DNA of 60,032 nucleotides from a virus, in UHGV virus genome UHGV-0168673; one strand, written 5' to 3'. Made by a program: the position numbers and the translations under genes. Positions 4,791 to 60,032 of this stretch are shown piece after piece. The notes beneath the pieces are model-generated. The model worked only from the letters and a program-made list of their open reading frames with translations, was not told where the DNA came from and ran no database searches. Each line of letters opens with the position of its first letter. The first letter of the stretch is position 1.

Positions 4791-5617
<827 letters not shown>

Positions 5618-5628
5618 ATTATCTCCTA

Positions 5629-6274: not shown

Positions 6275-6535
6275 TTATTTTTGAATTTTATCGAGCCACT
6301 TACCAAGCTTAATCATTTCTTTAGTAGCCTTTTCCATACTTCTGAACTTAACCAATAGAGGATAGGTATCGACACCCATAACTAAACTGGTTACAAGACT
6401 GTGTTCACCCACAAGCCATAATGAATACGTTTGAATATCGAGTCCGTAATTTCTGTCTTTATGGACCCGTACACCCATCACTTCAAATTTCTCACTAGCT
6501 TTTTCTACCGCATCCAGGAAATCATCTTTAGTCAT
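6275..6535 (-). CDS. Hypothetical protein
   Basis: Track ORF 6275..6577; I prefer the ATG at 6535 (MTKDDF..) one nt after the upstream stop (TAA-T-ATG coupling); the 6577 ATG is an alternative. Confidence 0.45.
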   Translation of the reverse strand: MTKDDFLDAVEKASEKFEVMGVRVHKDRNYGLDIQTYSLWLVGEHSLVTSLVMGVDTYPLLVKFRSMEKATKEMIKLGKWLDKIQK

Positions 6536-6536
6536 A

Positions 6537-6917
6537 TTAGGCCTTAAAAGTTTTTCGCAAAAGTTCAATGATTTCATCTACATTGTTTTCGTCAACAATG
6601 CAGTGAATTTTTGTTACGCCAGAAACCTTGTCTTTGACTTCATCTTCTTCAGAAGTCGGTTCTTTATACTCACGAAAACAATGAAATTCATCTTCGCAAA
6701 TTTCTAAAAGTCTATCTTTGAGGTAAAAATGCTTTCCATTTGCGCATTCAATGTGTTTTACTGCTTTATATCCATTAGCGACGGAAACTTCTTTAACTTC
6801 AAACCATCCGCCATTATCTCGAATAGCTTTAACGATTGATGAATTAGAACGTGGGCTATAATTAATAAATGTATCAATAAGTCTTGGAACAAGCTCATAC
6901 TTTTTGCCGATATACAT
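6537..6917 (-). CDS. Hypothetical protein
   Basis: Track ORF starts at TTG 6974; first ATG (MYIGKKY) at 6917 preceded by GAGGAA. Confidence 0.55.
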   Translation of the reverse strand: MYIGKKYELVPRLIDTFINYSPRSNSSIVKAIRDNGGWFEVKEVSVANGYKAVKHIECANGKHFYLKDRLLEICEDEFHCFREYKEPTSEEDEVKDKVSGVTKIHCIVDENNVDEIIELLRKTFKA

Positions 6918-6963
6918 TACGGTTTCCTCATTTTGATAGGGGCTTGATAGAGCCCCTTGATAA

Positions 6964-7191
6964 TTATTGTTCAATCAGTCCCATGTAAAATTCTGCGTCT
7001 TCAGAATCCATGCCATCACAATATTCATTAGCCATAAAGCGGGTGAGGTCTTCAAGAGGACCTTCAACAACAATTTGAATACTCCAAAATTTAGAATCTT
7101 GCACACTTGTGATACTAAGTTCAGGATAACGATTACGAATAATCTCTTCAATATATTCAAAATCAACAATGTCAATATCAACTTTAGCCAT
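6964..7191 (-). CDS. Hypothetical protein
   Basis: Track ORF 6964..7254; first ATG (MAKVDID) at 7191 preceded by GAGGAA and an early promoter. Confidence 0.55.
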
Positions 7192-7234
7192 ATTATTTTC
7201 CTCTTTAATCATCAGCAGTATTGCCGATAGTTGT

Positions 7235-7264
7235 ATAGTACCATGGAAGGACAAGGATGTAAAC
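7235..7264 (-). promoter_or_regulatory. Early (sigma70-type) promoter: -35 GTTTAC, 18-nt spacer, TG-extended -10 TACTAT
   Basis: Minus strand GTTTACA..TGGTACTAT with A/T-rich upstream region; directly upstream of ORF 6964..7191. Confidence 0.6.
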
Positions 7265-7289
7265 CGTTTTGTGAAAAAAATTTTTGAAA

Positions 7290-7316
7290 TAAAAAAAGGG
7301 GACCTCTAGGGTCCCC
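7290..7316 (-). terminator. Rho-independent terminator after gene 32
   Basis: Minus strand GGGGACC-CUAGA-GGUCCCC followed by UUUUUUU. Confidence 0.7.
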
Positions 7317-21691: not shown

Positions 21692-21971
21692 ATTGAATCA
21701 CCTTCAGTTGACGTTTTAACTCTTTTATCATTTCTTCGTTCATCGCAATATAAAGATCACGTAAAGCAGGTTTTAGCATGTCATTTATTATAGAACTAAA
21801 TGGACATACATAATCTTTTCCTACGAGCTTTTTGGTGAATTCCATATCACAGAACTTAAATCCCGGCTCATTGGTATAAATTCCCCAATTAGTTGACATC
21901 ATTTTATTAGCATATTCCAGCGCCTGGATTTGATTCATAATTCCATCAATTTGAAACTTTTTAATATTCAT
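21675..21971 (-). CDS. Hypothetical protein (arn.2 position)
   Basis: 98-aa track ORF. Confidence 0.5.
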   Translation of the reverse strand: MNIKKFQIDGIMNQIQALEYANKMMSTNWGIYTNEPGFKFCDMEFTKKLVGKDYVCPFSSIINDMLKPALRDLYIAMNEEMIKELKRQLKVIQFGQGN

Positions 21972-22432
21972 TAGTAAAGGTCCTCAGAGTAAAGTTCTTT
22001 TTCACTACCACCGCGTTCAATACGTACTTGTCCGGCGTAAGTTGCAATAATCATTGCTTCTTCACGTGTCCAATAATTACTATATTGGTCAATAAACCCT
22101 TGGTCATCATCACAAACTTGCTGAGTAACTAATTGAGGTTTAACTACATCTAAAACTTCTGCCATATCTTTAGAATAATGACGAGCACCTGGAATAATAA
22201 GAGTTCGTCCATCTTTTAATTTAAAACGGTTGGCTGCGCAAACAATTCGTCGTTGATATTTTTGATTTTCGTCCCAATATGCAGACTGCCAACAGATTTC
22301 AGGAACTTCTTTCAGAATATCTTCTTCTGTGCATTTATAACCATGCGCTTTAAATTTTTCAACAAGACTTTCTGGAGTCTCACGAGATAAAGGAACATTC
22401 AACATTTTTAAACGATTAATAAATGGGTTCAT
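21971..22432 (-). CDS. Hypothetical protein (arn.3 position)
   Basis: 153-aa track ORF; stop/start overlap with neighbours. Confidence 0.55.
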
Positions 22433-44377: not shown

Positions 44378-44551
44378 TCAGTCTTCAATGAAAACTTGTG
44401 CCAGGAATTCGTGTTCATCTTGAATTTGTTTATATAAAGCCATTACAGCATTTATATTAGAGCTATCTACTTTAAGTTGATAAGCATACCACTCGTGTAA
44501 ATTAATTAAAGCTTTTTGACGTCTAATAAATTCTTCTTTGGATATTTTCAT
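44375..44551 (-). CDS. Small hypothetical protein (58 aa), not in ORF track
   Basis: MKISKEEFIRRQKALINLHEWYAYQLKVDSSNINAVMALYKQIQDEHEFLAQVFIED; ATG overlaps upstream stop; would overlap the soc late promoter, so uncertain. Confidence 0.35.
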
Positions 44552-44742
44552 TTTGAATGCTCTATAATTAATTTTAAAGCTTCTTCACTGACAAAAATTT
44601 CGTCAGGACCTTCTATAACTTCAACCATACGAAGTTGATTAGTTAAGAGCTCACATACGAGCTCCTTGTTATAATCTTTAAATAGCTGGTCAATGCGTTT
44701 CTTATGGGCTTTCTTGAGCTGACGCTTATTTAAACGAGCCAT
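44548..44742 (-). CDS. Hypothetical basic protein
   Basis: 64-aa track ORF; ATG overlaps gene 56 stop by 1 nt. Confidence 0.5.
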   Translation of the reverse strand: MARLNKRQLKKAHKKRIDQLFKDYNKELVCELLTNQLRMVEVIEGPDEIFVSEEALKLIIEHSK

Positions 44743-45260
44743 TAATAACCTCGGTCTTGACGAGCGAAGTTTTCAGCATTTTTCAGGTAATAAAGTTTAA
44801 AGATTTCTTCAGCTGACATTCCAAGAGCAATAAATTTATTCATGAAAAAGTGAAATTGGTCAATCAGTTCAAATTTAATTTCAAGCTGATCTTCAGGAGA
44901 TAAATCTTGAATTTTCTTGGATTGCATTTCAGAATAACGTTTCTTCCAAGGTTTCCATACAGCAGAAGCTTCTTTTTCACCATTACTCATACCACCAAGA
45001 GAAGTATATAGCTCGCGAGTTTCATCTGCGATATAATCGTCTTGGTTTCGCAACCAAGCAAGAACTTCTCCTGCAGTTTCAAGTGAATCAGGATGACGAT
45101 TTGTTTCTGGTTTATCATTAGCCAAACGAATCTGTAAATGCCGCTGCATGTCAAGCATAACCTGCAGTGGGTCAATATTGTGCATAATATTCTCAGCATA
45201 TGCACGATTTGCTTTATCAACACCTTTGATCAAATGAGCACATTCATTAAAGTGAGCCAT
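44742..45260 (-). CDS. 56: dCTPase / dCTP pyrophosphatase gp56
   Basis: Track ORF starts at GTG 45353; from ATG 45260: MAHFNECAHLIKGVDKA..LQVMLDMQRHLQIRLAN..KEASAVWK..EIFKLYYLKNAENFARQDRGY matches T4 gp56. Confidence 0.9.
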   Translation of the reverse strand: MAHFNECAHLIKGVDKANRAYAENIMHNIDPLQVMLDMQRHLQIRLANDKPETNRHPDSLETAGEVLAWLRNQDDYIADETRELYTSLGGMSNGEKEASAVWKPWKKRYSEMQSKKIQDLSPEDQLEIKFELIDQFHFFMNKFIALGMSAEEIFKLYYLKNAENFARQDRGY

Positions 45261-45331
45261 TATTTTTCCTTTCAATTCATGGGTTAGTAGATTAATTATA
45301 CAATAAATATATAAAGCAATAAGGAGGACAT

Positions 45332-45532
45332 ATGGTACAAAAATTAATGGCACTTGTTAATGCCATAAAAGGTAATAAAAAACGTATAGCTTTTACTATT
45401 TCTGCTATGGTAGGAATTTTACTCTGGAACTTTATTCTATCACCTGTTGCAATTGCACATGGTATTAATATTCCAGTAGTTACTCTTGATACATTTGTAG
45501 ATTTAGCATTTGCTTTAGTTGGGTTAATTTAA
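45332..45532 (+). CDS. Small predicted membrane protein (66 aa) on the opposite strand
   Basis: Strong SD AAGGAGGA 5 nt before ATG; two hydrophobic segments; stop overlaps the gene 61 stop (convergent). Confidence 0.5.
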   Translation: MVQKLMALVNAIKGNKKRIAFTISAMVGILLWNFILSPVAIAHGINIPVVTLDTFVDLAFALVGLI

Positions 45533-46557
45533 ATCTTAGCATATTTAGATAACCGCATTTTAGCCATCAACCCCTGGGCAATATTATTTTTCATATATTC
45601 CATAATTTGTTCAGGGGTTGCACCTTCCTTTCTAATCATATCATTAACATCTTTTGATTTCCAGGGAGATTTATCCCAAAACATAACCCTTTCTCCTGCA
45701 TCAACTAATTTAGTCATTCGCTTAATAGTGTCAGGATGACGAGGTTCATTATCTAAAACCCACACACGTCTATCTTTAAATGGAACAACTTCTAGGTCTA
45801 ATTGACCACCCGTAATAGCTATACCATTTTCAATAAAAAGTGAATCTATAGGTCCTTCTAGAACATATACATCACCATCTTTAACTCGTTCAACACCGTA
45901 AATTTTTGTTGCCTCAGGATAAGCTTTAATGGTGATATATTTTTGAGGAGCATCTTTCTTTAATGCACGTCCTTGAAAAGACTCAGCTTTTCCATTAGCA
46001 TTATAAATTGGAATAACAAGACGAGGCTCAGAAATTTCCTTTTTGTATGTTCCCGGTGCTATGCTATTAACTAATTTAGGCCATTCAGTTGTAAACCAAA
46101 GATATTTCCATTTATCCTTTGGAATACAACGAGCTTTTACATATTTTATAATTGCATGGTCTTCCGCCAGTTTATCTAATCGAACACATGACGGAAGAGA
46201 TTTAATTATTTTCTTCTCAGGTTGTTTAGGAAGTTCTTTAGGTTTTTCTACTGGACGACTTTTACCTTTTTCTTTTCTTATTTCAAAGATATACTCACGA
46301 TATAAATCAGGTTCAAACTCCTTTAAATATATTCCGATTGGTGCATGATAGTTACAGTTATAACAATGAATATTTCCTTCATTATTATCACCATAATACC
46401 ATCCACGAGCTTTATTCTGATCGGTTTTTGAATCTCCACAAACAGGGCATCTAAACCGCAATTTAAAAGTTGAACTATTATTTACTTGTGCGAATTTAGG
46501 TAAATGAGCCAATGCACGATACGCAAACTCATTATCAATCCAAGGTATTGATGACAT
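45529..46557 (-). CDS. 61: DNA primase gp61
   Basis: 342-aa ORF MSSIPWIDNEFAYRALAHLPKF..CPVCGDS..CYNC (zinc ribbon) matches T4 gp61. Confidence 0.95.
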   Translation of the reverse strand: MSSIPWIDNEFAYRALAHLPKFAQVNNSSTFKLRFRCPVCGDSKTDQNKARGWYYGDNNEGNIHCYNCNYHAPIGIYLKEFEPDLYREYIFEIRKEKGKSRPVEKPKELPKQPEKKIIKSLPSCVRLDKLAEDHAIIKYVKARCIPKDKWKYLWFTTEWPKLVNSIAPGTYKKEISEPRLVIPIYNANGKAESFQGRALKKDAPQKYITIKAYPEATKIYGVERVKDGDVYVLEGPIDSLFIENGIAITGGQLDLEVVPFKDRRVWVLDNEPRHPDTIKRMTKLVDAGERVMFWDKSPWKSKDVNDMIRKEGATPEQIMEYMKNNIAQGLMAKMRLSKYAKI

Positions 46558-46723
46558 TTTTACTCTTCTTTTTCTTTAGATTCCTCTTTTTCTTTTTAGG
46601 AATCTGCTCAGGACCTTTATTTACTACAGCACCTGACGTTGTTCCAGTAGAGATATTTTCAGGATTACCACCTGAATCTCCAGCTACCATATCTTCTTTG
46701 ATAAATTCTTTATATGTTTTCAT
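46535..46723 (-). CDS. Hypothetical basic protein (61.1 position)
   Basis: 62-aa track ORF; lysine-rich C-terminus. Confidence 0.5.
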   Translation of the reverse strand: MKTYKEFIKEDMVAGDSGGNPENISTGTTSGAVVNKGPEQIPKKKKRNLKKKKSKNVINTLD

Positions 46724-46724
46724 A

Positions 46725-47081
46725 TTAACCTCTATTCATAAAAGCATTAAAAATTTGGTCATCAATAGATGGAATAGCAACCTTTTCGGCATCATTTAGC
46801 AAATCATTAATTTCATCAGATAACATAACACATGTGCCTTTATTTCCTGTAATTGTTACTGCACAATTACGAACGTTTTCTTTATCAAATTTTAGGTTAA
46901 TATTTTCGTAGTGAAAATCCTTTAATGCCGAATATATCTTTAAAATGAAATTGTCTTTTACTACAATAAACCCAACCTCACTATTAAAACGCGGTTCATG
47001 GAAACTGTAATAAACCTTTTCATCTATAAAATCGTATGAAATTTTTTCCATTTTTAAATATGAAAATTCAGAACTATACAT
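46725..47081 (-). CDS. Hypothetical protein; C-terminal tail duplicated from the adjacent 210-aa ORF
   Basis: 118-aa track ORF ending ..SIDDQIFNAFMNRG. Confidence 0.5.
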   Translation of the reverse strand: MYSSEFSYLKMEKISYDFIDEKVYYSFHEPRFNSEVGFIVVKDNFILKIYSALKDFHYENINLKFDKENVRNCAVTITGNKGTCVMLSDEINDLLNDAEKVAIPSIDDQIFNAFMNRG

Positions 47082-47082
47082 A

Positions 47083-47715
47083 TTAACCTTTATTCATAAA
47101 AGCATTAAAAATTTGATCGTCAATAGAAACTTTTACTTTAGGCTGTTCTTCAAACGGTAATTCATATCCACATATTACAATTTTGTGATCGATACCAAAA
47201 TACACAGAAGCAATATTATTAATATTATTTTCAGTGAAATCTAAATCAACATCAATATCTTTTTGACTAACGCTCAAAGGATAATTAATACGAATAATTC
47301 GATTATCTTTAACAAAGATTCCACCGACATACTCTGTGCTGCGTTTAAAGTTTACACGTTTCCTAAATGAAAAATATTCAGGTTCTTTATGGGCTCGACT
47401 CATAGGGCTTAAAGTGTATTCCGAATATGAAATATCAAATCCTACACCTTCAATATGAGCCAAAGTGTCATGATTAAACCAATTATAATCGTATGCCAAA
47501 TCCATTAAATTGTAATATGTGAAAGGCACCGGATTAACATCATATGTTGTACCTTTAAAATCTGCCCAGGCAACGATTTCGTTATCTTTAACAATTACAA
47601 AAATTGTGCCAATAAGATATCCACGGTTATTTTCATCAGGCGTTATATTATAACATTGTGCATCAGGAAATTTACCGTATTTAAACGGTGGATTTTTGTG
47701 CATATAATAAATCAT
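47083..47715 (-). CDS. Hypothetical protein (61.2 position)
   Basis: 210-aa track ORF ending ..SIDDQIFNAFMNKG. Confidence 0.55.
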   Translation of the reverse strand: MIYYMHKNPPFKYGKFPDAQCYNITPDENNRGYLIGTIFVIVKDNEIVAWADFKGTTYDVNPVPFTYYNLMDLAYDYNWFNHDTLAHIEGVGFDISYSEYTLSPMSRAHKEPEYFSFRKRVNFKRSTEYVGGIFVKDNRIIRINYPLSVSQKDIDVDLDFTENNINNIASVYFGIDHKIVICGYELPFEEQPKVKVSIDDQIFNAFMNKG

Positions 47716-47716
47716 A

Positions 47717-48010
47717 TTATTCGCCTGTGATTTCGGTTACGATATTTTTGTTATTAAAGTTTTTATCGCAGTACAGAACATAATTATACTGCATTACACC
47801 ACCAGACTTAAGTTGTTTTTGCACTTCAGCTTTCATTTCAGGACGATCGCGCTCAACGATATTCATAATATCCGCTTCAATTTGAGTTTCAACTTCAGTC
47901 TGATCTGCAGTCATAGACCATTCACACAAATCTTTATCATATCCTGCCATAGCAGGCTGAGCAGCACAAGAAGCCAAAGTAAAAATTGTAGCAAAAATAA
48001 ATTTTTTCAT
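47717..48010 (-). CDS. sp: Spackle periplasmic protein (superinfection exclusion)
   Basis: 97-aa ORF with signal peptide MKKFIFATIFTLASCAAQPAMAGYDKDLCEW.. matches T4 Sp. Confidence 0.9.
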   Translation of the reverse strand: MKKFIFATIFTLASCAAQPAMAGYDKDLCEWSMTADQTEVETQIEADIMNIVERDRPEMKAEVQKQLKSGGVMQYNYVLYCDKNFNNKNIVTEITGE

Positions 48011-48038
48011 GATAATCTCCTCAGTAGTTTATGTTTAT

Positions 48039-48068
48039 ATAGTATCTCAATTTCCAACAAAAGTAAAC
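48039..48068 (-). promoter_or_regulatory. Early promoter for sp (-35 GTTTAC / -10 TACTAT)
   Basis: GTTTACttttgttggaaattgagaTACTATAT on minus strand. Confidence 0.5.
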
Positions 48069-48070
48069 AG

Positions 48071-48328
48071 CTATTTTAAAACTTCTGCGTAATCACATGT
48101 TACAAACTGTTTCTCTAGCTTAACGATTTTACGAAAATACCTTTTATACTGACGAATCTGCCTCTTCGTAGGACGTACAGCAAACTTAATAAATTCCACT
48201 CGACCAAATGGAGGACTTTCTTCTGCTGGAATATCTAACACCAATTCCCACGTATCTGCAATAAGTGCTTTGAATTGAGTATTTTTCCTGACGTTATACG
48301 GAGTAGGTTTAAATAAAACAATATGCAT
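48071..48328 (-). CDS. Hypothetical protein (61.4 position)
   Basis: Track ORF 48071..48382; ATG at 48328 (MHIVLFKP..) with GAGGA SD, one nt after the dmd stop. Confidence 0.5.
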   Translation of the reverse strand: MHIVLFKPTPYNVRKNTQFKALIADTWELVLDIPAEESPPFGRVEFIKFAVRPTKRQIRQYKRYFRKIVKLEKQFVTCDYAEVLK

Positions 48329-48329
48329 A

Positions 48330-48512
48330 TTATCCTCGGCAATCCACTTCGCACACTTTCTTGTCATCAATGAAAGCTTCAACTAATGCTTTATTAACTT
48401 CAGCATATTGAGTAGTAGCCCATTGAACGTCATCTTTCATCATTGTGATTTCTTTAGTAAACATGCTTTCATTCTTAAACCACCCCATAAAAACTACCTT
48501 TACCAATTCCAT
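48330..48512 (-). CDS. dmd: Dmd antitoxin (inhibitor of host RnlA/LsoA toxins)
   Basis: 60-aa ORF MELVKVVFMGWFKNESMFTKEITMMKDDVQW.. matches T4 Dmd. Confidence 0.85.
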   Translation of the reverse strand: MELVKVVFMGWFKNESMFTKEITMMKDDVQWATTQYAEVNKALVEAFIDDKKVCEVDCRG

Positions 48513-48541
48513 AACAATCTCCTCATTTAACCAACAAGACT

Positions 48542-48571
48542 ACTATACCATAGTCTTGTCAGCTTGTAAAC
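48542..48571 (-). promoter_or_regulatory. Early promoter for dmd (-35 GTTTAC / -10 TGgTATAGT)
   Basis: GTTTACaagctgacaagactaTGGTATAGTA on minus strand, abutting the gene 41 stop. Confidence 0.55.
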
Positions 48572-49998
48572 TAAAATTTTAATTCATTTGCCAAAGCATC
48601 TAACTGTGCTCGAGTGGATTCATTTCTTTGATAGCGATTCTGTTCAGCCTGAATCTGTTGTGAACCTGCTACTTCACTCACTTCAGTTGGAGTAGAATCT
48701 TGTTCAATTTCTACCCATTTCTGATTTCCCTTTTGAACACCCATCAAAAACTTATTCCACTTATTCTTATCGCCATATCGCGATTTGATTTGCTTAATGA
48801 GTTGTTGTTCAGCAGCTGCTAGCTCCTCGGTTTCAATGACCGCAAGCATAAAATCAGCTGTTGCTGGAAGACCAGCAGATTCTGCGATATCACTCATGTT
48901 AACATCGGAAGAGTCCCAAGCTTGTTTACCAACCTGTGCTGCAGTCCAAAGAACAGTTTCGGTTTCAACAGCAAGAGCACGCAATTCCTCTGCAATAGCT
49001 TTAACAGTTGTGTAACTATTTTCTGAGTAAACTCTGATGCGACAAGATTTACAAATACCTAGATAGTCGACAATAATGATTGTTGGAACAAAATTCTTTT
49101 TGAGCTTCAATTCATTCAAGAGAGACCTGAATGTGTTAGCATCTGCCCCACCAGTAGGGTACTGTTTAACAATTAAACGACCGAGAGTAGATTTCTCACG
49201 CCATTTTTCCATTTTTCCTTTATACTCAGCGTAAGAAATATGCCCATCATCAATGTCATCAAGAGAAACATCGAGCATATTAGCGTCAATACGTTTAGCA
49301 CAGACTTCTTCTGCCATTTCCATGGAGATATAAAGAACGTTATGTCCAAGCTGTAAATAATCTGCTGCTAATGAACACAATCCTAATGATTTACCAACGT
49401 TAACGCCAGCCATTAAAACGTTCAGTGTTCCAGTTTCAGCTCCGCCTTTAGTAATTTTGTTTAGAATTCTGAGTTTAAATGGAACCTTACGAGCTTTATT
49501 CATATAAGATAGCCAACGTGCTTCATAGTCATCCATCCAATCATGGCCAACGTAGCTATCAAATGAAATTGATAATGCTTGTCGCATGATGTCAGGAATA
49601 GCACCAACATCCGGCATTTTCTTATTTCGTTTTTCCGGAGGAAGCTCAGCATTAGTTTGAATTTCGATTATTTTAGACGTAGCATTAAACATCGCCCTTT
49701 GCTGAACATATTTTTCTGTTTCTTTTACTAACCAGCTGTGGTCTTCCGGAGAATCAGCTAGTTTTGAAATAAGTGTTTTTACACCAGAATATTCTGTTTC
49801 AGTAAATGAACTATTTTCTAATGCAACATTTAACGCATTAATAGATGGAACGCTATGGTACTCATTAACATGAGATTTAATTAATTTAAATGTATTTTTA
49901 GCTGGACCACTTTCAAAATATTCTGAATCCATATATGGCCAAACTTTTGAAAAATAAGCTTGATCAAATATGAGATGAGAAAGAATAATTTCTACCAC
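48571..49998 (-). CDS. 41: Replicative DNA helicase gp41
   Basis: 475-aa ORF MVEIILSHLIFDQAYFSKVWPYMDSEYF.. matches T4 gp41, same length. Confidence 0.97.
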   Translation of the reverse strand: MVEIILSHLIFDQAYFSKVWPYMDSEYFESGPAKNTFKLIKSHVNEYHSVPSINALNVALENSSFTETEYSGVKTLISKLADSPEDHSWLVKETEKYVQQRAMFNATSKIIEIQTNAELPPEKRNKKMPDVGAIPDIMRQALSISFDSYVGHDWMDDYEARWLSYMNKARKVPFKLRILNKITKGGAETGTLNVLMAGVNVGKSLGLCSLAADYLQLGHNVLYISMEMAEEVCAKRIDANMLDVSLDDIDDGHISYAEYKGKMEKWREKSTLGRLIVKQYPTGGADANTFRSLLNELKLKKNFVPTIIIVDYLGICKSCRIRVYSENSYTTVKAIAEELRALAVETETVLWTAAQVGKQAWDSSDVNMSDIAESAGLPATADFMLAVIETEELAAAEQQLIKQIKSRYGDKNKWNKFLMGVQKGNQKWVEIEQDSTPTEVSEVAGSQQIQAEQNRYQRNESTRAQLDALANELKF

Positions 49999-50007
49999 AC
50001 TTACTCC

Positions 50008-50352
50008 TTAAAAGAATTTAAACTTTTTCTTTGACCTTTTATTAAATGCATCTTGTAGTTGCATTGTAATACATTTTTCTACATGAGGAGCTAACTCAGC
50101 TTTTCTTTCTTGGTCAAGAACAGCAAAGTCCATTACAACCTTTCCATCAACCCAATTTAATTTTGTCACATACACAATGTGCGTAGAACCATCTTCTAGT
50201 TTAATGACAATCTCCTGGATAACATTTTCCATGGCAGATTTAATTATCTTAAGAGACTCATTAAAAAGACGTTCTTTTCTTTCTTCTTCCCCCTCCGAAG
50301 AGGGGGATTCATCGATAATTTCTAGATCTAAGTCTAAATCATCTTTATTCAT
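50008..50352 (-). CDS. 40: gp40 head vertex assembly protein
   Basis: Track ORF starts at GTG 50370; ATG at 50352 overlaps the uvsX 3' end; MNKDDLDLDLEIIDE.. 114 aa. Confidence 0.7.
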   Translation of the reverse strand: MNKDDLDLDLEIIDESPSSEGEEERKERLFNESLKIIKSAMENVIQEIVIKLEDGSTHIVYVTKLNWVDGKVVMDFAVLDQERKAELAPHVEKCITMQLQDAFNKRSKKKFKFF

Positions 50353-51526
50353 TAAATTCTTCCATATCACTTAACTGCTCGAGGTCAGTTTCTAAATCAG
50401 CAGCTGATTTACTTTTACTTTCTGGAGATTTAAATTTTTCAACCTTTGAGTTAATTAATTCATCAACTTCAGCTTCAACAATTTCATTACTATCAATAGC
50501 ACCTAACTGATAAGCACGCTTAATAGCATCTCGGAATGGTTGATGCTTAAATAAAGGACCCCAGAATGTAGTGCAGTTAGTATCTTTTGCACGCCAAGAT
50601 TTTTCTTCGCGAATCATCTCGCCGGTTTCTTCATCAAGAAATTCACGAGCATACCAACCATTTTTAGGTTTTACAACAAATCCTAATTCTAGAGCCATAT
50701 CTAACAATCCAGAATAAGGATCGATACCACCGTCAAATTTAACATCAATAAAGAATTTACTTTTTTCTTTAACGGTACGAGATTTTTCTACATTTAGAAC
50801 AAATTGATACCCCTGAAGATCAGAACCATCTTTAATCTGGCGTTTACCGATAATGAATACAGTATCAGCCGAATACATTACGCCTGTACCACCTGTCATC
50901 ACGGTTTTACTAAACATTTCAATTGTTTCAATTGTATGGTTAACCGCAACACATGGAATATTTTTAATGCTAAAATAAGGAGTAACAATACGGAATAATG
51001 ACTTCAGTGATTTAGCACGAGTCATATCTGCCACAGATTTTTCATTTAAGGCATCTTCCGTTTCTTTCTTAGAAGCCATATTACCGATTGAGTCGATGAA
51101 TACAATAACCTTTTCACCGCGCTCAATAGCTTCAAGCTGGTTCACCATATCAATTTTCAGCTGTTCAACTGACTGGATTGGCGTATGAATTACTCGTTCC
51201 GGGTCAACTCCCATGGATCGCAAATAAGCTGGAGTAATACCAAATTCGCTATCATAGAATAGACAAACCGCGTCAGGATATTTGTTCAAATATGCCGCAA
51301 CCATAGTCAAAGACATATTTGATTTAAAGTGTTTAGAAGGCCCTGCGAAAATAGTTAAACCAGACTGCATGCCGCCATCAATCGCACCAGAAATAGCAAT
51401 ATTAAGCATTGGGATTTTTGTACGGATTACATCCTTTTCATTAAAGAATTTAGATGTAGTCAGTTCAGCAGTCATTTTAGAAGTGGAAGCTTTAATCAAA
51501 CGGGATTTTAAATCTGCAATAGACAT
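50345..51526 (-). CDS. uvsX: UvsX recombinase (RecA homologue)
   Basis: 393-aa ORF; RecA-fold motifs and acidic C-terminus as in T4 UvsX. Confidence 0.95.
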   Translation of the reverse strand: MSIADLKSRLIKASTSKMTAELTTSKFFNEKDVIRTKIPMLNIAISGAIDGGMQSGLTIFAGPSKHFKSNMSLTMVAAYLNKYPDAVCLFYDSEFGITPAYLRSMGVDPERVIHTPIQSVEQLKIDMVNQLEAIERGEKVIVFIDSIGNMASKKETEDALNEKSVADMTRAKSLKSLFRIVTPYFSIKNIPCVAVNHTIETIEMFSKTVMTGGTGVMYSADTVFIIGKRQIKDGSDLQGYQFVLNVEKSRTVKEKSKFFIDVKFDGGIDPYSGLLDMALELGFVVKPKNGWYAREFLDEETGEMIREEKSWRAKDTNCTTFWGPLFKHQPFRDAIKRAYQLGAIDSNEIVEAEVDELINSKVEKFKSPESKSKSAADLETDLEQLSDMEEFNE

Positions 51527-51603
51527 TCATTTTTTCCATAGGCATCATTATATTTTCCTCACTGGTTAAAGATAGAGTAATTATAACACAATAAATTTAG
51601 GCA

Positions 51604-52446
51604 TTAATCAACTGCTATTGGATGAATAGCATTAAACTTATGAAATGCTTCTGATTTTTCTTTGCGCGAAACACACATGCGAAGAACCTTTAATGGCTCG
51701 TCTTCTTCACCCAACGATTTTCGTTTTTCAATATTAGAAGTTTTCCAACGAGCTTGCTCTGGAAACTCTCTATTGATTTGCTCAAGCGCTCTATTATGTT
51801 TAGAATTACTACGAATTGAACTACACCCGCCAGGAGCTTGTGCTTTTCCAGATACAACCAGATATTTGAACAAGGCCAAATGCGGATAACCTTGATTAAT
51901 TAAATTGAGAAATGCATACATATCTTCGCATAAATCAATTTTTCCATACCCAATTTGTTCTGTCGTAAGTTTTCCGAGGTCATACCATGTATTCGTGAAT
52001 CCATATGAATTTTCACGATAATTACCCCAAGATGAAGTAATTTTAAAAATTGGTAGGCGAGCATGACCATGATAATACCCGCAATCCATGGCATCTTCAA
52101 CGTATTGAATCAATTCATAGAACTGTTCACGGGTTAATTGATTGACTTTATCTACACAACGACGGTCATCTCTTTTTCGCATTGAACTCATACGAATAGT
52201 AGTATCATCGTCAATCATCCAGATTCGTTGACCTGCATACATATTAGTAATTGCTTTACGAGTACCGGCAATTCCGTTTACATCATCAGGAATAGTTATA
52301 ATTTTAGCTCTAGACCCATAAGCGTCATGATAAGCTTTTTCTTCGTGTTCACGCACTACAATATGGGGTTCATAATCAGTCGGAAACATATCAAGGGCAG
52401 AAACTGCCCCGACACGCTGATAACTTGGAATTACGAATTGAATCAT
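51604..52446 (-). CDS. Putative glycosyltransferase (GT-A-like, DxD motif) at the position of T4 beta-glucosyltransferase
   Basis: Track ORF starts at GTG 52452; ATG at 52446 overlaps gene 42 stop (ATGA); 280 aa, VIPSYQR near N-terminus and IWMIDDDTTI; not T4 Bgt (351 aa). Confidence 0.55.
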   Translation of the reverse strand: MIQFVIPSYQRVGAVSALDMFPTDYEPHIVVREHEEKAYHDAYGSRAKIITIPDDVNGIAGTRKAITNMYAGQRIWMIDDDTTIRMSSMRKRDDRRCVDKVNQLTREQFYELIQYVEDAMDCGYYHGHARLPIFKITSSWGNYRENSYGFTNTWYDLGKLTTEQIGYGKIDLCEDMYAFLNLINQGYPHLALFKYLVVSGKAQAPGGCSSIRSNSKHNRALEQINREFPEQARWKTSNIEKRKSLGEEDEPLKVLRMCVSRKEKSEAFHKFNAIHPIAVD

Positions 52447-53183
52447 TTCCACTCACCTTTATAGTCTTTTTTCACAATATGAGTTTCGCCAGTATTCCAC
52501 CAATGATCAACCAAGTAAAAATGACGAGAATATACATGAAGACTTCCGACATTCCATATAATAGAACCTGCTTTATACTGACGAGTTGAATCGCCTGCAT
52601 TCAAATCAGATACTAATTTATCTAATACGTATTTTTGCCATGCATAATCATTACGGAATCCGAAGACCACGTCATTTGAGCGCATGCTTACTACTGCATT
52701 GACTTTCTTATCACGAATCAGGTACTGTACTGTATTAGTACACATGAAATCTGACATACCATCTTTATTGTAGTCAAATTGCATGGATGGACGAGTATAA
52801 ATCATGATACCACGTCGAGAATCAGGATTTTGACCAAGTTCAGCTAAACACATATCATACTGGGCGTAGTTATCTTCTGACCAAATAGCCCAACCATAAT
52901 TCGAGTTAATTTCGCCTTTAGAAGATGCTACTTGCTGCCAAATCTTCGGTGTTTCACCTGGAATATCTTTAACAAACAGACTTTGAGACTTGTACCATTC
53001 AAGTTCACGCTGAATGTATTCATCATTAAGAGCGCCAAAAATAAAGGGTTCATCTGCTACAAATGATGCGCCAATAATTTCAATAGTTTTAACACCAGTT
53101 TTATCAACTACGAAATCTTTTTCTTTTAATGCAAGCCCCAAATGAAGACGGATTTCTTCAACTGTCAAAGAGTCACTAATCAT
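52443..53183 (-). CDS. 42: dCMP hydroxymethylase gp42
   Basis: 246-aa ORF MISDSLTVEEIRLHLGLALKEKDFVVDKTGVKTIE.. matches T4 gp42. Confidence 0.95.
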   Translation of the reverse strand: MISDSLTVEEIRLHLGLALKEKDFVVDKTGVKTIEIIGASFVADEPFIFGALNDEYIQRELEWYKSQSLFVKDIPGETPKIWQQVASSKGEINSNYGWAIWSEDNYAQYDMCLAELGQNPDSRRGIMIYTRPSMQFDYNKDGMSDFMCTNTVQYLIRDKKVNAVVSMRSNDVVFGFRNDYAWQKYVLDKLVSDLNAGDSTRQYKAGSIIWNVGSLHVYSRHFYLVDHWWNTGETHIVKKDYKGEWK

Positions 53184-53336
53184 TTAAACCTCAATTGATA
53201 CATTCATATTTAACTTGTAACAGTAATAAACCCCAACCTAAAATAATAGTTGGAATCATAGCAGGAACTGTTACGCTATAGTATATACTTATTATAACCA
53301 TCAAGATTAAAAGCAACACTGTTATAATTTTGCTTT

Positions 53337-53588
53337 TCATTCCTTCTCTCTGATGATAATTACCTGATTTGGTTGTGCAGACTTTTTAGTTTCACCCGCA
53401 ATTGACCAAATAAATGTAATAAACCAACCAATAATTGACCAGTTAAACAGTAAAGATGTGAAAAAGATTCCTACTGTCGATTTTGACCCACGCATCAAGG
53501 CGATAAACCATGGAAGCATGTATATAATAATAGCCAACACACCTGAAACTAAAACCATAAAAATTGAACCTGCTACTAAAGTTTCCAT
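53337..53588 (-). CDS. imm: Superinfection immunity protein Imm
   Basis: 83-aa two-TM ORF METLVAGSIFMVLVSGVLAIIIYMLPWFIALMRG.. matches T4 Imm. Confidence 0.9.
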   Translation of the reverse strand: METLVAGSIFMVLVSGVLAIIIYMLPWFIALMRGSKSTVGIFFTSLLFNWSIIGWFITFIWSIAGETKKSAQPNQVIIIREKE

Positions 53589-53599
53589 GTTTTCCTCAC

Positions 53600-53980
53600 T
53601 TAGTCAATTTTTTTTTTTACACATGAATTATAAGAATTCACTACATACTCCATCGGAGCATTTTTACCAGTACGCCATTGGTAATTATTAGCCCAATTTG
53701 CCCAAAGCTCGGCGCAGTAGTTTTCAATTTTTTCTTCGCGTGTAATTACATCAGAATTACGATATGCTTGAGCAGATTCATCCGGACGAATAGCTTCGTC
53801 AAAATTCGCCTGCATTTGTTCTACTGTTTGCTTTGGAGCTTCTTTATAACACTTGACATTAGGATTATAAAATTTGCTTGAACAGTTTACAATTTTTCCT
53901 ACACCAGACTGATTTACTACCGGTCCTTGAGCTACACAACCAGTAAGACCTAATGCAATAACCAAAATAGCGATTTTCAT
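53600..53980 (-). CDS. Hypothetical lipoprotein (imm.1 position)
   Basis: 126-aa track ORF with signal peptide and LTGC lipobox. Confidence 0.6.
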   Translation of the reverse strand: MKIAILVIALGLTGCVAQGPVVNQSGVGKIVNCSSKFYNPNVKCYKEAPKQTVEQMQANFDEAIRPDESAQAYRNSDVITREEKIENYCAELWANWANNYQWRTGKNAPMEYVVNSYNSCVKKKID

Positions 53981-53990
53981 AATAATTTCC

Positions 53991-54239
53991 TCAAATGCAA
54001 GTAGTAATTACTCCAGTAGTGCTTATGCAGGTATTACCCATTTGCACACCTAAAGATCCATTTGTATTCACATGAAGATTATCATCAATTTTAACTGATA
54101 TTTTACCATTAGTGTGAATAACGGTGCTAGATTTAATCACAGGTTGAGTATCATTTTCAACACTAACAAATGGAACTGCTACTAATGCAACTAAACAAAC
54201 TGCTAAGCATCCCATAACAATTTTCATTTTATTCTCCAA
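53991..54239 (-). CDS. Hypothetical secreted/membrane protein
   Basis: 82-aa track ORF with hydrophobic N-terminus; early promoter upstream. Confidence 0.5.
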   Translation of the reverse strand: MENKMKIVMGCLAVCLVALVAVPFVSVENDTQPVIKSSTVIHTNGKISVKIDDNLHVNTNGSLGVQMGNTCISTTGVITTCI

Positions 54240-54264
54240 ATCTGTATCAGTAGTTGATAGTTGT

Positions 54265-54294
54265 ATAGTACCACAGAAGAACAGTCTTGTAAAC
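54265..54294 (-). promoter_or_regulatory. Early promoter (-35 GTTTAC / -10 TGgTACTAT)
   Basis: GTTTACaagactgttcttctgTGGTACTATACAACTATCAACTACTGA; module near-identical to the motA promoter. Confidence 0.55.
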
Positions 54295-54375
54295 AGTTTT
54301 GTGAAAATTTTTTTAGGGAATTCTAAAGGTCCAGAATCATCTGTTTTTCATAAGTATAGATTTATATTACTTGTA

Positions 54376-54398
54376 TGAAAAAGGGACCCGGAGGTCCC
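54376..54398 (-). terminator. Rho-independent terminator after gene 43
   Basis: Minus strand GGGACC-UCCG-GGUCCC followed by UUUUU. Confidence 0.65.
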
Positions 54399-54411
54399 TA
54401 GATTTATTCTA

Positions 54412-57108
54412 TCAGCCAAACAGGAAGTCTAACGAAGCTTTTTCTTCATAGTCCATACCAGCCGATTCACACATGCCTGCAAGCGGTTTAACAAACGATT
54501 TTTGGAACAAAGTTGAGTAGTCAATCCAAGACAATACGTCAGAACGAATTTCTTTTGGAAGTTCTGTGCCCGACGGCCAAGCAATGCACTTGTCACCAAA
54601 TGGATTTCCTTCACGCAATGGAAGAACCATTACTTTATTTCCATCCAAAATTGGAGCTACACCTAAACCGTTAACAGCTCGACGATAAGTTAGCACACCA
54701 CGAATATGGAACGGGCATTTAAATCCTGGCCAACCTTTATCATCATATTTCGCTATATCGTTCGCAGTTTTTACTTCAGCGATAACTTTATAGTCAAGTT
54801 GACGATATTCTTTCTCGAAGTTCTTGTAGTATTCTTGAACAGACTCTTCACCTTCCTGAAGAATACGACGAATACTTTCTTCGAGTGCTTCTTGCACTGC
54901 TTTTGGTGTTGAACTCTGCTGAGTTTCCATACCCATGATTTTTAGATGCGGTTCAGCAAATCGCTTATCTTCCATATCATAAACGTTCAGAGCATAACGC
55001 TTTTTCGCTTTCCAAAATCCGCCAACGCCCTTTGAACCAAGTGGAGGGCAAGAAATAGCTTCACGGTCCATATGCATCAGATGCTCGCGGTTATTCATAT
55101 AATCACATAACTCACGATATGCAACATCAATCATAGGTTCCATCTTTTTCTTACCGAATTGATTCATGAATTCAACTAAATCGTTCTGCTCTTTGAATCG
55201 GTCAAGACCAACTTTTTCAATAACTTTATCTACACAAACATATACCGAATCAGTATCACCTGCTGCGATGAAATCTTCGCCATTAGTTCCACATACTTTA
55301 TTCAGATACTCATTAATTTTACGAGCAATCCACTGAATACCAACTTGACCAAAAATTGTGATAGCAGTAGCATTTCGCAAATCATAGTAACGGAAATGAA
55401 TGTTACCAAGAGCACCATAAAGACTATTAATAAGAATTTTACGGTTCAGCTGATTTGTGTTAGCAAGTGTAGCTGCTTTTTCACATTCTTCAATCAAACT
55501 ATTGAGAACAGATTCAGTATAATTCGATAGTTCATTTAAGAAATCATCACTGAACTTAACATATCGTTCAACTTCAGGTTTAGTTGAACAAGACCCTGCG
55601 CCTTTCATAATAATCTTTTTAATAGCTTCGGCATTCATTTCTTCAGCGAACATTTTCTTTTTCCAATCTTTACGCTGGAAAAATACTTTAGCGATTTCCT
55701 TTGGAATGATACCTTCTTGATGCTTATCGTACATCCATCCATTCGGAGAACAAGAATATTCATCACTCGGTTTAGGAGCTGTTCCTGCGATATATTCATG
55801 AATTGGATGAACTTTAAACTGCCCACGAATAGTCTCAGGACTAATGTTAACCTGACGAATAATGCTCGGATACAGAGACGTCAAGTCAAAACTCATAATA
55901 TATCGACGAGCAATTGGTTTAGGTTCAAACACAAATGCACCCGGAAAACTCTGTTTAACATGCGAACCTTGTTGAGGAATAACCTTATGTTCACCTTTCA
56001 ATGAGTTAAAAATAATAGCATCCCAGGTTTTAATAGGACTCATTACACCAGAAAAAGGCATTTTAGCGTAATAAGACATACTTAAAACTAGATCGATAAA
56101 CCCGCGGATTTTATCAATTGCTTGAACTGATTCTACGTCAATGATGTTATAACTAATGTATCGTTGATGATTAGTCTCACGAAGTTTATTAATAGGACCG
56201 TCGTATGGTAATTTACCTTTTTTGGTTTCATGCTGAGCAACTGATTCCAAAGAGAATGACGGCAAATTAGTAAATGCGAATTTCTTGTACAAATCTAAAT
56301 AATCAAGAATAGATACGCCATCAATAGAATAAATTTCTTTGCTACCGTACATATTTTGAATTAGTTTAGATTTTACTCGACCGATTGGAGAGAAGCGTTT
56401 CATACTACGTTCACCGAGAACCATTTTAACGCGATTCATGATATATGGAACGTCAAATCCCTCAATATTCCAACCAGTAAAAATAGCAGGTCGTTTCTGT
56501 TCCCAAAGATTGATATATTCCATGAGCATATCACGCTCGTTATCGAATGGCATATAAATTACTCGGTCAAGAATTTCTTGAGGAACTTCATCACCACCTT
56601 CACAGTCAAGCTTAGCAGCTAACTTTGCATCCCATTTTGATACTGAACCGTACATTGAATTCAAAAGGTCGAAAACATAAAAACGGTCATCAATTGAATC
56701 GTAATGAGTGATAGCATCAATTTCATATTCTGCTTTCATTGGGTCAGGAAATTTATCACCAGTAACCTCAATGTCACAGTTAGCTACACGAACAAATTTT
56801 CGGTCATAAACAATTTCTGAACCATATGTATCACTGATATAAGCGAGTTTAAAATCGTTCATACCGAGAGCTTCGAGACCGATGTCTTCCATTCGTTTCA
56901 TCCAATCTCGAGCATCTTTCATTGATGAAAATTTTTGAGGAGCGCAATTTTTACCATAGATGTCTTTGTACTTTGACTCTTCCTTACAATGCCTAAACAT
57001 AGTCGGAAGATATTCTACTTCACGAGTACGTTCCTTTCCGTTTTCATCAATATAACGTTCAACAATGTTATTTCCGACTGTTTCGATAGAGATATAAAAT
57101 TCTTTCAT
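54412..57108 (-). CDS. 43: DNA polymerase gp43 (family B)
   Basis: 898-aa ORF MKEFYISIETVGNNIVERYIDENGKERTREVEYLPTMF.. matches T4 gp43, same length. Confidence 0.97.
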   Translation of the reverse strand: MKEFYISIETVGNNIVERYIDENGKERTREVEYLPTMFRHCKEESKYKDIYGKNCAPQKFSSMKDARDWMKRMEDIGLEALGMNDFKLAYISDTYGSEIVYDRKFVRVANCDIEVTGDKFPDPMKAEYEIDAITHYDSIDDRFYVFDLLNSMYGSVSKWDAKLAAKLDCEGGDEVPQEILDRVIYMPFDNERDMLMEYINLWEQKRPAIFTGWNIEGFDVPYIMNRVKMVLGERSMKRFSPIGRVKSKLIQNMYGSKEIYSIDGVSILDYLDLYKKFAFTNLPSFSLESVAQHETKKGKLPYDGPINKLRETNHQRYISYNIIDVESVQAIDKIRGFIDLVLSMSYYAKMPFSGVMSPIKTWDAIIFNSLKGEHKVIPQQGSHVKQSFPGAFVFEPKPIARRYIMSFDLTSLYPSIIRQVNISPETIRGQFKVHPIHEYIAGTAPKPSDEYSCSPNGWMYDKHQEGIIPKEIAKVFFQRKDWKKKMFAEEMNAEAIKKIIMKGAGSCSTKPEVERYVKFSDDFLNELSNYTESVLNSLIEECEKAATLANTNQLNRKILINSLYGALGNIHFRYYDLRNATAITIFGQVGIQWIARKINEYLNKVCGTNGEDFIAAGDTDSVYVCVDKVIEKVGLDRFKEQNDLVEFMNQFGKKKMEPMIDVAYRELCDYMNNREHLMHMDREAISCPPLGSKGVGGFWKAKKRYALNVYDMEDKRFAEPHLKIMGMETQQSSTPKAVQEALEESIRRILQEGEESVQEYYKNFEKEYRQLDYKVIAEVKTANDIAKYDDKGWPGFKCPFHIRGVLTYRRAVNGLGVAPILDGNKVMVLPLREGNPFGDKCIAWPSGTELPKEIRSDVLSWIDYSTLFQKSFVKPLAGMCESAGMDYEEKASLDFLFG

Positions 57109-57145
57109 AGATATTCCTTAGTTTATAGCCCGAGTTATTAGGCTC
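57109..57145 (-). promoter_or_regulatory. Gene 43 translational operator (hairpin adjacent to SD)
   Basis: Minus strand GAGCCUAAUAACUCGGGCUAUAAACUAAGGAAUAUCUAUG matches the T4 gp43 autoregulatory site as recalled. Confidence 0.6.
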
Positions 57146-57165
57146 TGATATATTATACTCCAAAT

Positions 57166-57183
57166 AAGGGGCCGAAGCCCCTT
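57166..57183 (-). other. C(UUCG)G hairpin between regA and gene 43
   Basis: Minus strand AAGGGGC-UUCG-GCCCCUU. Confidence 0.55.
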
Positions 57184-57185
57184 GC

Positions 57186-57554
57186 TTAATTACCAATCGT
57201 ATATTTAGGAACGAGTTTCCATTCATGTTTTTGTTTAAAAGAAATAACTCGGAAGTTATTAGTTAAATCTTTCATAAAAGTTCTTTGACCAGGAACGATT
57301 TCAATCAGTCCCCAATCTTCTAACAGCCATGCAATCGAATCACGACGAACTTCATCTTCTTCTGTCATTTCAACTTGCCGGCCATCCATACGAAGCATTT
57401 CTTTAAAATGAACGATATAGTATAGTCCTTTTTTCTGAAGAATATGACAGGACTGATACAGAACTTTATCTTTATTATTAGCAATTCCCATACGAGTCAA
57501 AGTTTCTTTTACTTTCAGAAAATCTTCAGGTTTTTTAAGAGTAATTTCAATCAT
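57186..57554 (-). CDS. regA: Translational repressor RegA
   Basis: 122-aa ORF MIEITLKKPEDFLKVKETLTRMGIANNKDKVLYQSCHILQKKG.. matches T4 RegA. Confidence 0.9.
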   Translation of the reverse strand: MIEITLKKPEDFLKVKETLTRMGIANNKDKVLYQSCHILQKKGLYYIVHFKEMLRMDGRQVEMTEEDEVRRDSIAWLLEDWGLIEIVPGQRTFMKDLTNNFRVISFKQKHEWKLVPKYTIGN

Positions 57555-57555
57555 T

Positions 57556-58119
57556 TTACCATTCCAATGCTAGTTTTTTGAGTTGTTTCTGTTCTTTTAC
57601 GTTCTTAGTCACTTCTTTTAAAAAATCATCCGTGACTAATCCTTTAAGTTCTTTTAATACTAAAGGTAGTTTTCCATTTTTAGTAAGAATTGATTTATAG
57701 TTAATTGCATCATTTGTATTAACTTGATACCGCTTAGCAATTAACTTAATAATCAATACTTCGGTGGAATCTTCAACTAGTTTTGCCCATTTACCATATC
57801 TTTTACCCCGAGGAACAGCAGCCATCAGATAATTAAAATGGGCTTCATCGCTTAAACCTGATCCAATTAAATTCATAGCATATACAGCTGGCATGCACTC
57901 CGGAAATTGTGATAATGCATTTTCAACCATGAATTTTGAATAATCTTTTTGAGCGATAGAGCATTTAGTTTTATTATTAATAGCTCCAATTATTTCAAAA
58001 AACTCATTTTCAGCTTTTTCTTTAAAAGAATCAGCAGCGGATTGGACAGCTGTCCAATCTTTTGAATACCAAGCAACTTGATGCTCGTTTAATTGAATAT
58101 CATCTTCAAATAAGCTCAT
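57556..58119 (-). CDS. 62: Clamp loader small subunit gp62
   Basis: Track ORF 57556..58140; from ATG 58119: [22 protein letters not shown].. (187 aa) as in T4. Confidence 0.9.
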
Positions 58120-58120
58120 A

Positions 58121-59080
58121 TCACTTCCACTGCATTTCACATGCTAACTGAATGAAAAGATAAGCTAGATGCAATTCAGTATTAGCTGCAATACCATGAT
58201 ACTGATTATTTTCGCCGACAATTTCGTACATACGAATAATACTCTGTGGAGTTACACGTGAATAGATTTCTTCGGCAAGTTTACCCACGAACCACGAATA
58301 ATCAGCTGCATATTTTGGTGCTAAAGCTCTGAGTTGTTTAACATCTTTATTTTTGAGAGACTCAAGAACATCATCAATAGCACCACGATCGTTAGTAACC
58401 AGTGATAAAATACCAGCATCCAAAACACCTTTAGATGAATAACTATCGAGCTCGCCAATAGTTTTACGAAAATCAGGAAAATTCTTTTTAACCAAAGCTG
58501 CTACAACTTTCATATCAGCTATAGCAATTCCTTCATGCTTGCAGATTTCAGTCAATCGACGAATCATCTGCTTCATCATTTCAATTTTATCTTCATCGGT
58601 CGGTTGACCGAACGTAATAACTCGGCAGCGTGACTGAAGCGGTTTAATAATACCATCAATATTGTTAGCAGTAATAATAATACTACAGTTTGAACTATAA
58701 GCTTCCATAAAGGAACGAAGATGTCGCTGAGACTCTGCTAATCCTGAGCGGTCAAATTCATCAATAACTATTACTTTTTGACGACCATCAAATGAAGCGG
58801 CGCTGGCAAAATTAGTCAAAGGACCACGAACGAAATCAATTTTACAGTCTGATCCATTCACAAACATCATATCAGCATTTACATCATGACACAATGCTTT
58901 CGCTACAGTTGTTTTACCTGTTCCTGGAGAAGGAGAATGAAGAATAATATGTGGAATCTTACCTTTACTTGTAATAGATTTAAAGGTTTCTTTATCAAAG
59001 GCGGGAAGAATACATTCATCGATAGTAGATGGACGATATTTCTGTTCAAGAATGTGTTCTTTTTCATTTACGGTAATCAT
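58121..59080 (-). CDS. 44: Clamp loader large subunit gp44 (AAA+ ATPase)
   Basis: Track ORF starts at TTG 59095; from ATG 59080: [32 protein letters not shown].. (319 aa) as in T4. Confidence 0.9.
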
Positions 59081-59113
59081 AATTTCCTCATTCAAGTTTT
59101 AGTGTAAATTATA

Positions 59114-59128
59114 AAGGGCCGAAGCCCT
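59114..59128 (-). other. C(UUCG)G hairpin between genes 45 and 44
   Basis: Minus strand AGGGC-UUCG-GCCCU. Confidence 0.55.
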
Positions 59129-59131
59129 CTA

Positions 59132-59818
59132 TTAAAAATCGTGGGTAGAATCAGCTTCAAGAGCTACTACATAATTCGCATGTTCACCTTCAAATTTAGC
59201 AGCACCTTGTTTACCTTTTGCCCAGAGCAGAAGTTTATAATTTCCTGGTTGCATTTTCATATTTGCCATATTGATAATGAAATTAAATGTATTTTCACCA
59301 TCATAATCACCAAGAGTCAAAGAATATTTAACACGAGTCAAAGCAGAATCTTCTACTTTATTAAAACCGTTAATTACGATTTTACCTTCTTTTACCGTGA
59401 TAGCAATTGTATCAATTTGCAGACCACGAGATACACGCAACAGTTGTTGAAGGTCTTCAGCTTTAATTTCAGTAACAACAGATGCTACCGGGAATGGAAT
59501 TGGTTTATTAGGAGCAACTACTGTACTCGGATCGGCTGCTGGCCAAAAAATTGTTGAACGAGCATCAGCAATTTTAATATTTCCATCTTCTGACTGGGAA
59601 ATTTCTGCATCATCATTAACTAGAGACAGAATACCAAGAAAACCGTTCAAATCGTAAATCGCTACATCAAAATCAATAGTGTCAGAAATATTTGCTTCTG
59701 CATAAGTTGTACCATTAACTGCGCGAGTCATAATAAATTGACCTGATTTAAGCATAATGCCAGAGTTAATAGTAGCGAAATTTTTCAAAATATTCAGTGT
59801 GTCTTTAGATAATTTCAT
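59132..59818 (-). CDS. 45: Sliding clamp gp45
   Basis: 228-aa ORF MKLSKDTLNILKNFATINSGIMLKSGQFIMTRAVNGT.. matches T4 gp45. Confidence 0.95.
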   Translation of the reverse strand: MKLSKDTLNILKNFATINSGIMLKSGQFIMTRAVNGTTYAEANISDTIDFDVAIYDLNGFLGILSLVNDDAEISQSEDGNIKIADARSTIFWPAADPSTVVAPNKPIPFPVASVVTEIKAEDLQQLLRVSRGLQIDTIAITVKEGKIVINGFNKVEDSALTRVKYSLTLGDYDGENTFNFIINMANMKMQPGNYKLLLWAKGKQGAAKFEGEHANYVVALEADSTHDF

Positions 59819-59983
59819 TTCAATTTCCTATTTACATAATAGTTAGACCAGGACCGTACAGCACCCTGATAAGATTCGTCGTTAAACCCATTAGCTACTG
59901 CAATTTTACGAAATTTATTATAACTTGGTTTTCCGTAAGCATGCCATAAAGATTTTAATTCATCTTCATGTTCAATCCAAGTT
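59815..59983 (-). CDS. rpbA: RpbA (RNA polymerase-binding protein), C-terminal fragment; 5' end lost at contig/adapter junction
   Basis: Track ORF 59815..60012; first 10 residues MGSEMCIRDR are translated adapter; remainder ..TWIEHEDELKSLWHAYGKPSYNKF.. lies where T4 rpbA sits upstream of gene 45. Confidence 0.55.
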
Positions 59984-60032
59984 CTGTCTCTTATACACAT
60001 CTCCGAGCCCACGAGACACTGAGCGATCTCGT
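59984..60032. other. Illumina Nextera adapter / i7 index-primer sequence (library artefact)
   Basis: CTGTCTCTTATACACATCT + CCGAGCCCACGAGAC + index-like ACTGAGCG + ATCTCGT; reverse complement of 1..49. Confidence 0.9.

Follow-up and report, generated by a model that had tools for sequence, protein, structure and literature searches.

A T2/T6-type glucosyltransferase between uvsX and gene 42

The open reading frame (ORF) that separates uvsX from gene 42 in the virus genome UHGV-0168673 almost certainly encodes a beta-glucosyl-HMC-alpha-glucosyltransferase of the T2/T6 type (ba-gt or g-gt; Pfam TAGT). We analysed a single stretch of 60,032 bases (the window), where ORF finding places the gene on the minus strand, running from an ATG at 52446 to a stop codon at 51604-51606 and specifying 280 residues that begin MIQFVIPSYQR. 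An alternative in-frame GTG at 52452, two codons upstream of the ATG, would extend the product to 282 residues. Read directly from the sequence, the ATG overlaps the stop codon of gene 42 as ATGA, as would be expected if the transferase gene were translationally coupled to gene 42. A preliminary description of this DNA had reported a 280-residue ORF between uvsX and gene 42; the ORF is indeed there and contains both motifs quoted for it, VIPSYQR (residues 5-11) and IWMIDDDTTI (residues 75-84). Coordinates of the principal features are collected in Table 1.

Profile searches and close relatives agree on the identity of the protein. It scores 40.7 bits (cut-off 27.5; E = 3.2e-10) for Pfam family PF20691 (TAGT, 'TET-associated glycosyltransferase'), over positions 2-205 of the 205-position profile, and matches PHROG 842 (phrog_842, 'beta-glucosyl-HMC-alpha-glucosyltransferase') at E = 4.2e-88; no NCBIfam model covers it. 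Across its 280 residues it shares 99% identity with the T2 protein (AP018813, 22282-23124) and 98-99% with that of T6 (MH550421, AP018814). Four substitutions distinguish it from the T2 protein: R11 (T2 H), H40 (Y), N68 (D), and P251 (S). The likeness extends to context, as the T2 and T6 genes also lie between uvsX and gene 42, also overlap gene 42 by ATGA, are accompanied by the same partner genes (a-gt, 42, and 56), and encode proteins of predicted GT-A fold. The preliminary description had offered the T2/T6 enzyme only as an example of what the ORF might be, to be checked by a Pfam search and by alignment with the T2 and T6 glucosyltransferases; both analyses, together with PHROG 842, support that example.

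The protein is not confined to this genome. Its exact sequence was already in NCBI (EFJ1046529.1, on a 167-kb contig) and occurs on five independent contigs, and the protein of Shigella phage SHBML-50-1 differs from it by one residue, at N68. By megablast, 475 phage records contain the gene at full length and at least 90% nucleotide identity; most come from Tequatrovirus phages of Escherichia, Shigella, and Yersinia, and many name it beta-glucosyl-HMC-alpha-glucosyltransferase. This conservation, together with a score above the Pfam gathering threshold for PF20691, shows that it is not a chance ORF; the transferase gene is intact here and ordinary for this phage group.

Table 1. Features of the transferase locus and of the associated hydroxymethylcytosine genes in the window.
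Feature	Coordinates	Strand	Basis
Gene 56, dCTPase/dUTPase, 172 aa	44742..45260	-	ORF; called on scaffold L010 at 21849-22367
uvsX recombinase, downstream flank	50345..51526	-	ORF; PF00154 and PF21134 on identical scaffold L010
946-bp cassette without T4 DNA similarity	51515..52460		blastn; T4 homology ends and resumes at borders
Beta-glucosyl-HMC-alpha-glucosyltransferase (ba-gt / g-gt / TAGT), 280 aa, almost certain	51604..52446	-	ORF; PF20691; PHROG 842; T2/T6 identity
E174-D175 codons (CED), candidate catalytic base of inverting GT2-like enzyme	51922..51927	-	Conservation; model
D79-D80-D81 codons, DxD motif, expected metal/UDP-sugar site	52204..52212	-	Invariance; model position
Gene 42, dCMP hydroxymethylase, makes hmC base	52443..53183	-	96% protein identity to T4 gp42; PF00303 on L010
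Candidate MotA-type middle promoter upstream of gene 42 (TGCTT, 14 nt, TATAAT)	53291..53315	-	Pattern match only

In the course of these comparisons we observed that the deposited laboratory genomes carry apparent lesions in this gene. In one T6 record (MH550421; L001 7138-7980) codon 10 is a stop, and the annotation gives a 261-aa 'ggt' that begins at M20; in the other (AP018814; L006 2135-2974) an in-frame deletion removes one Asp from the DDD motif, leaving 279 residues; and T2 (AP018813; L002 7283-8125) encodes His as residue 11, which is Arg in all ten aligned homologues. These lesions could bear on the long-known difference between the gentiobiosyl-hydroxymethylcytosine contents of T2 (5%) and T6 (72%) (PMC13390438; PMC11078745), or could reflect drift of laboratory stocks.

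A cassette in place of T4 segA and b-gt

At the same locus T4 carries a 351-aa b-gt and the homing endonuclease gene segA. Nucleotide comparison (blastn, window 50000-54500) showed that T4 homology stops at 51514, slightly within the 5' end of uvsX, and restarts at 52461, slightly within the 3' end of gene 42, whereas T2 and T6 DNA align straight through this interval. A 946-bp cassette therefore replaces the 1941-bp segment of T4 that holds segA and b-gt, and its breakpoints abut the two conserved flanking genes closely. By tblastn, neither b-gt, a-gt, nor segA was found anywhere in the window.

The T4 enzyme (Bgt, PF09198) resembles the T2/T6-type enzyme in its syntenic slot beside gene 42, in its use of UDP-glucose, in making a beta linkage, and in modifying hydroxymethylcytosine (hmC) DNA. 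The two differ in acceptor, which is naked hmC for Bgt and alpha-glucosyl-hmC for the T2/T6-type enzyme, and in fold (GT-B for Bgt, GT-A for the window protein), and they share no sequence similarity: compared with T4 Bgt by BLASTP, the window protein gave chance matches only (best E = 2.2), and a Pfam search gave no PF09198 match at E up to 1. The mismatch with T4 Bgt noted in the preliminary description is thus borne out, and we rejected the idea of a diverged Bgt on the grounds of absent similarity and different fold. An arabinosyltransferase system of the RB69 type was likewise rejected, since gp42 shares 96% identity with the T4 hydroxymethylase and the transferase is near-identical to the T2/T6 enzymes. 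A TAGT at the position syntenic with T4 b-gt has been stated explicitly before (PMC13390438), and the pairing of a-gt with b-gt is the exception, found in T4 and five relatives, most phages pairing either a-gt or b-gt with a TAGT (PMC13216743).

Predicted fold and candidate catalytic residues

In a structure search the predicted structure of the window protein matched GT2/GT-A enzymes and nucleotidyltransferases; it does not have the two-domain GT-B fold. The suggestion in the preliminary description that a GT-A-like DNA glycosyltransferase takes the place of Bgt is accordingly supported. The DxD motif of the protein is conserved: the DDD at residues 79-81 does not vary among 10 homologues with identities as low as 32%, and in the model it follows strand 74-77 of a predicted Rossmann-like domain, the typical position of the DxD in GT-A enzymes. 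There, the DxD binds metal and UDP-sugar. By analogy, DDD 79-81 should hold metal and UDP-glucose in the phage enzyme. A second conserved site comprises D175, which is invariant, and E174, kept in at least 90% of homologues; the pair lies at the N-terminus of modelled helix 174-184 and is a candidate for, and likely to supply, the general base, like the TED/ED motif of GT2 enzymes. To judge from the predicted fold, glucose transfer should be inverting, and an inverting enzyme acting on UDP-alpha-glucose would make a beta linkage, in agreement with the known product. The model is poor at residues 125-151 and 203-211, hence its acceptor-binding part is not resolved.

The resemblance to bacterial GT-A glycosyltransferases of the GT2 family (BcsA, TarP, TarS) is one of fold: these share only 6-17% sequence identity with the window protein, act on polysaccharides or teichoic acids rather than DNA, and offer no clear counterpart to its C-terminal 100 residues. 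A sequence search of solved structures gave no match at E up to 1, indicating that no TAGT family member has an experimental structure. Our assignment agrees with published work that places the T2/T6 enzyme in PF20691/TAGT and, from an AlphaFold3 model of T6 TAGT, describes it as GT-A and sister to GT2 (PMC13216743).

Hydroxymethylcytosine genes and an alpha-glucosyltransferase partner

Genes 42 and 56 lie in the window (Table 1), the latter syntenic with the T6 gene annotated as gp56 dCTP pyrophosphatase. The preliminary description had also proposed a search for agt in the rest of the genome. Through contigs that encode an identical DNA polymerase (gp43) we obtained a scaffold, L010, that is 100% identical to window positions 44412-59984 (the last 15.6 kb) and encodes an identical TAGT. 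This scaffold carries an intact 400-aa a-gt (PF11440) about 5.3-6.5 kb past the point at which the window ends. Both genes are present on all four contigs listed with an identical gp43, and the pair also occurs in SHBML-50-1, T2, and T6. From the identical scaffold we infer that a-gt, though outside the window, belongs to the same genome as the window TAGT; the co-occurrence of the pair on L010, on the other three contigs, and in SHBML-50-1, T2, and T6 indicates that the acceptor-making enzyme is present in this genome type.

Taken together, these genes would make up the following pathway. By removing dCTP from the pool, gp56 would leave only hmdCTP to be incorporated, and gp56 with gp42 would thereby give phage DNA made with 5-hydroxymethylcytosine. 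The alpha-glucosyltransferase would then add glucose to hmC in alpha linkage, and TAGT, using UDP-glucose, would place a second glucose on the first in beta-1,6 linkage, producing gentiobiosyl-hmC. This chemistry would carry over to the window enzyme from the T2/T6 literature; our own evidence concerns sequence identity, fold, motifs, and context.

Alternative activities and residue N68

Could the enzyme instead act as a primary glycosyltransferase, modifying unmodified hmC directly, or transfer a sugar other than glucose? Phages without a-gt and b-gt have solitary TAGT homologues for which such activity is suspected. TAGTs associate with an alpha-GT or a beta-GT, and 288 of 753 phage genomes carry a solitary TAGT (PMC13216743); with so diverse a family and such varied partners, acceptor specificity varies within it. 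However, the window protein matches the T2/T6 enzymes at 98-99% identity, and a-gt is present in the same genome (via scaffold L010). In T6, deletion of ba-gt/g-gt removes the second glucose only, leaving alpha-glucosyl-hmC and raising sensitivity to Brig1 (PMC11078745; bioRxiv 10.64898/2026.02.25.707755). Furthermore, HPLC/MS of the Durham Tequatrovirus phages NR1 and Some, whose transferase gene shares 98.0-98.1% nucleotide identity with the window gene, put gentiobiosyl-hmC at about two-thirds and detected no beta-glucosyl-hmC (PMC13390438). We therefore regard direct action on hmC, or use of another sugar, as extremely improbable.

Residue 68 raises a different question, namely whether an intact gene might encode a weakened enzyme, so that the phage would contain mostly alpha-glucosyl-hmC, like T2, and not mostly gentiobiosyl-hmC, like T6. 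N68 is the single unusual residue of the window protein relative to T2/T6-type enzymes: T2, T6, SHBML-50-1, and Maryam have D here and remoter homologues D or E, so that the position is acidic in every other homologue compared. The T2 and T6 proteins, too, are only a few residues apart, yet their phages differ as widely in gentiobiosyl-hmC as noted above. That difference, however, is not known to stem from the transferase gene, and position 68 lies outside the invariant columns, at the end of helix 58-69 and away from the DxD. The recovery of the exact protein on independent contigs, moreover, indicates that the variant persists in nature. We consider a weakened enzyme very unlikely, and the same slim probability attaches to the idea that D68N changes activity or processivity and so shifts the ratio of alpha-glucosyl-hmC to gentiobiosyl-hmC. 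If it did, the shift would alter phage sensitivity to glycosylases such as Brig1. The preferred reading remains that of a T2/T6-type TAGT adding the second glucose.

Other features of the region

Several further features were observed around the locus. A MotA-type pattern upstream of gene 42 (Table 1) is one of 30 matches in the window, where 18 +/- 4.7 were expected; judged by pattern, it probably drives a transcript of 42 and ba-gt. Within the 77-bp spacer between the transferase stop and uvsX, positions 51580-51603 (minus strand) read TGCCTA, 12 nt, TGnTATAAT, a sequence that by pattern resembles a T4 MotA-dependent middle promoter, here for uvsX, and whose box overlaps the transferase stop. 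A scan of 51000-54500 for sigma-70 promoters and terminators gave no excess of sites over shuffled sequence.

Between imm and gene 42 lies a strongly hydrophobic 49-aa ORF (53191-53340, minus strand) that contains the MotA-box-like match at 53291-53315. It is conserved in T4, T2, and T6, is unannotated in the T4, T2, and T6 records we fetched, is listed as hypothetical in phage Maryam, and matches Pfam PF26865 (Phage_T4_Y02C) on scaffold L010. Another small ORF, between imm.1 and gene 43 (53991-54239, minus strand), encodes 78 residues from an ATG or 82 from a TTG and has a signal-peptide-like start; it has no Pfam match and is shared with SHBML-50-1 (gp049) and the contigs with identical gp43. 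The position is a small variable slot, which an unrelated 83-aa ORF occupies in T2 and which holds no ORF in T4 or T6. Just past the window end, L010 encodes a 295-aa ORF between rpbA and gene 45 (6407-7294), whose counterpart in SHBML-50-1 (L004 12281-13168) is annotated as a homing endonuclease, and a 238-aa ORF on the opposite strand beside gene 46 (5052-5768). Both are absent at those positions in T6 and T2.

The first and last 49 bases of the window (1-49 and 59984-60032) stem from read-through into Illumina Nextera adapter and not from phage DNA. The adapter letters (CTGTCTCTTATACACATCT CCGAGCCCACGAGAC ACTGAGCG ATCTCGT) at one end are inverted relative to those at the other, and both copies carry the same 8-base index. 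The window, at 60,032 bases, is therefore an entire contig from which the adapters had not been trimmed; scaffold L010 runs on with real phage sequence past 59984.

Implications

The genetics, fold, product, and syntenic position of this enzyme have all been published, so what we find in the window is already known and the gene is an unremarkable representative of an established family rather than a discovery. The preliminary description had suggested the right type of enzyme; it was unaware that this is the usual and already described state in most Tequatrovirus genomes (PMC13216743), in which a-gt with TAGT is the majority arrangement and T4 the exception. Gentiobiosyl-hmC alters how host defences see phage DNA: it resists the Brig1 glycosylase in vitro as well as the glucose-removing enzyme BapA, and is still cut by GmrSD-type enzymes (PMC13216743; PMC11078745; bioRxiv 10.64898/2026.02.25.707755). 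Given these effects, whether a phage carries a-gt with TAGT or a-gt with b-gt predicts its restriction profile, a prediction that is useful in annotation and in the choice of phages.
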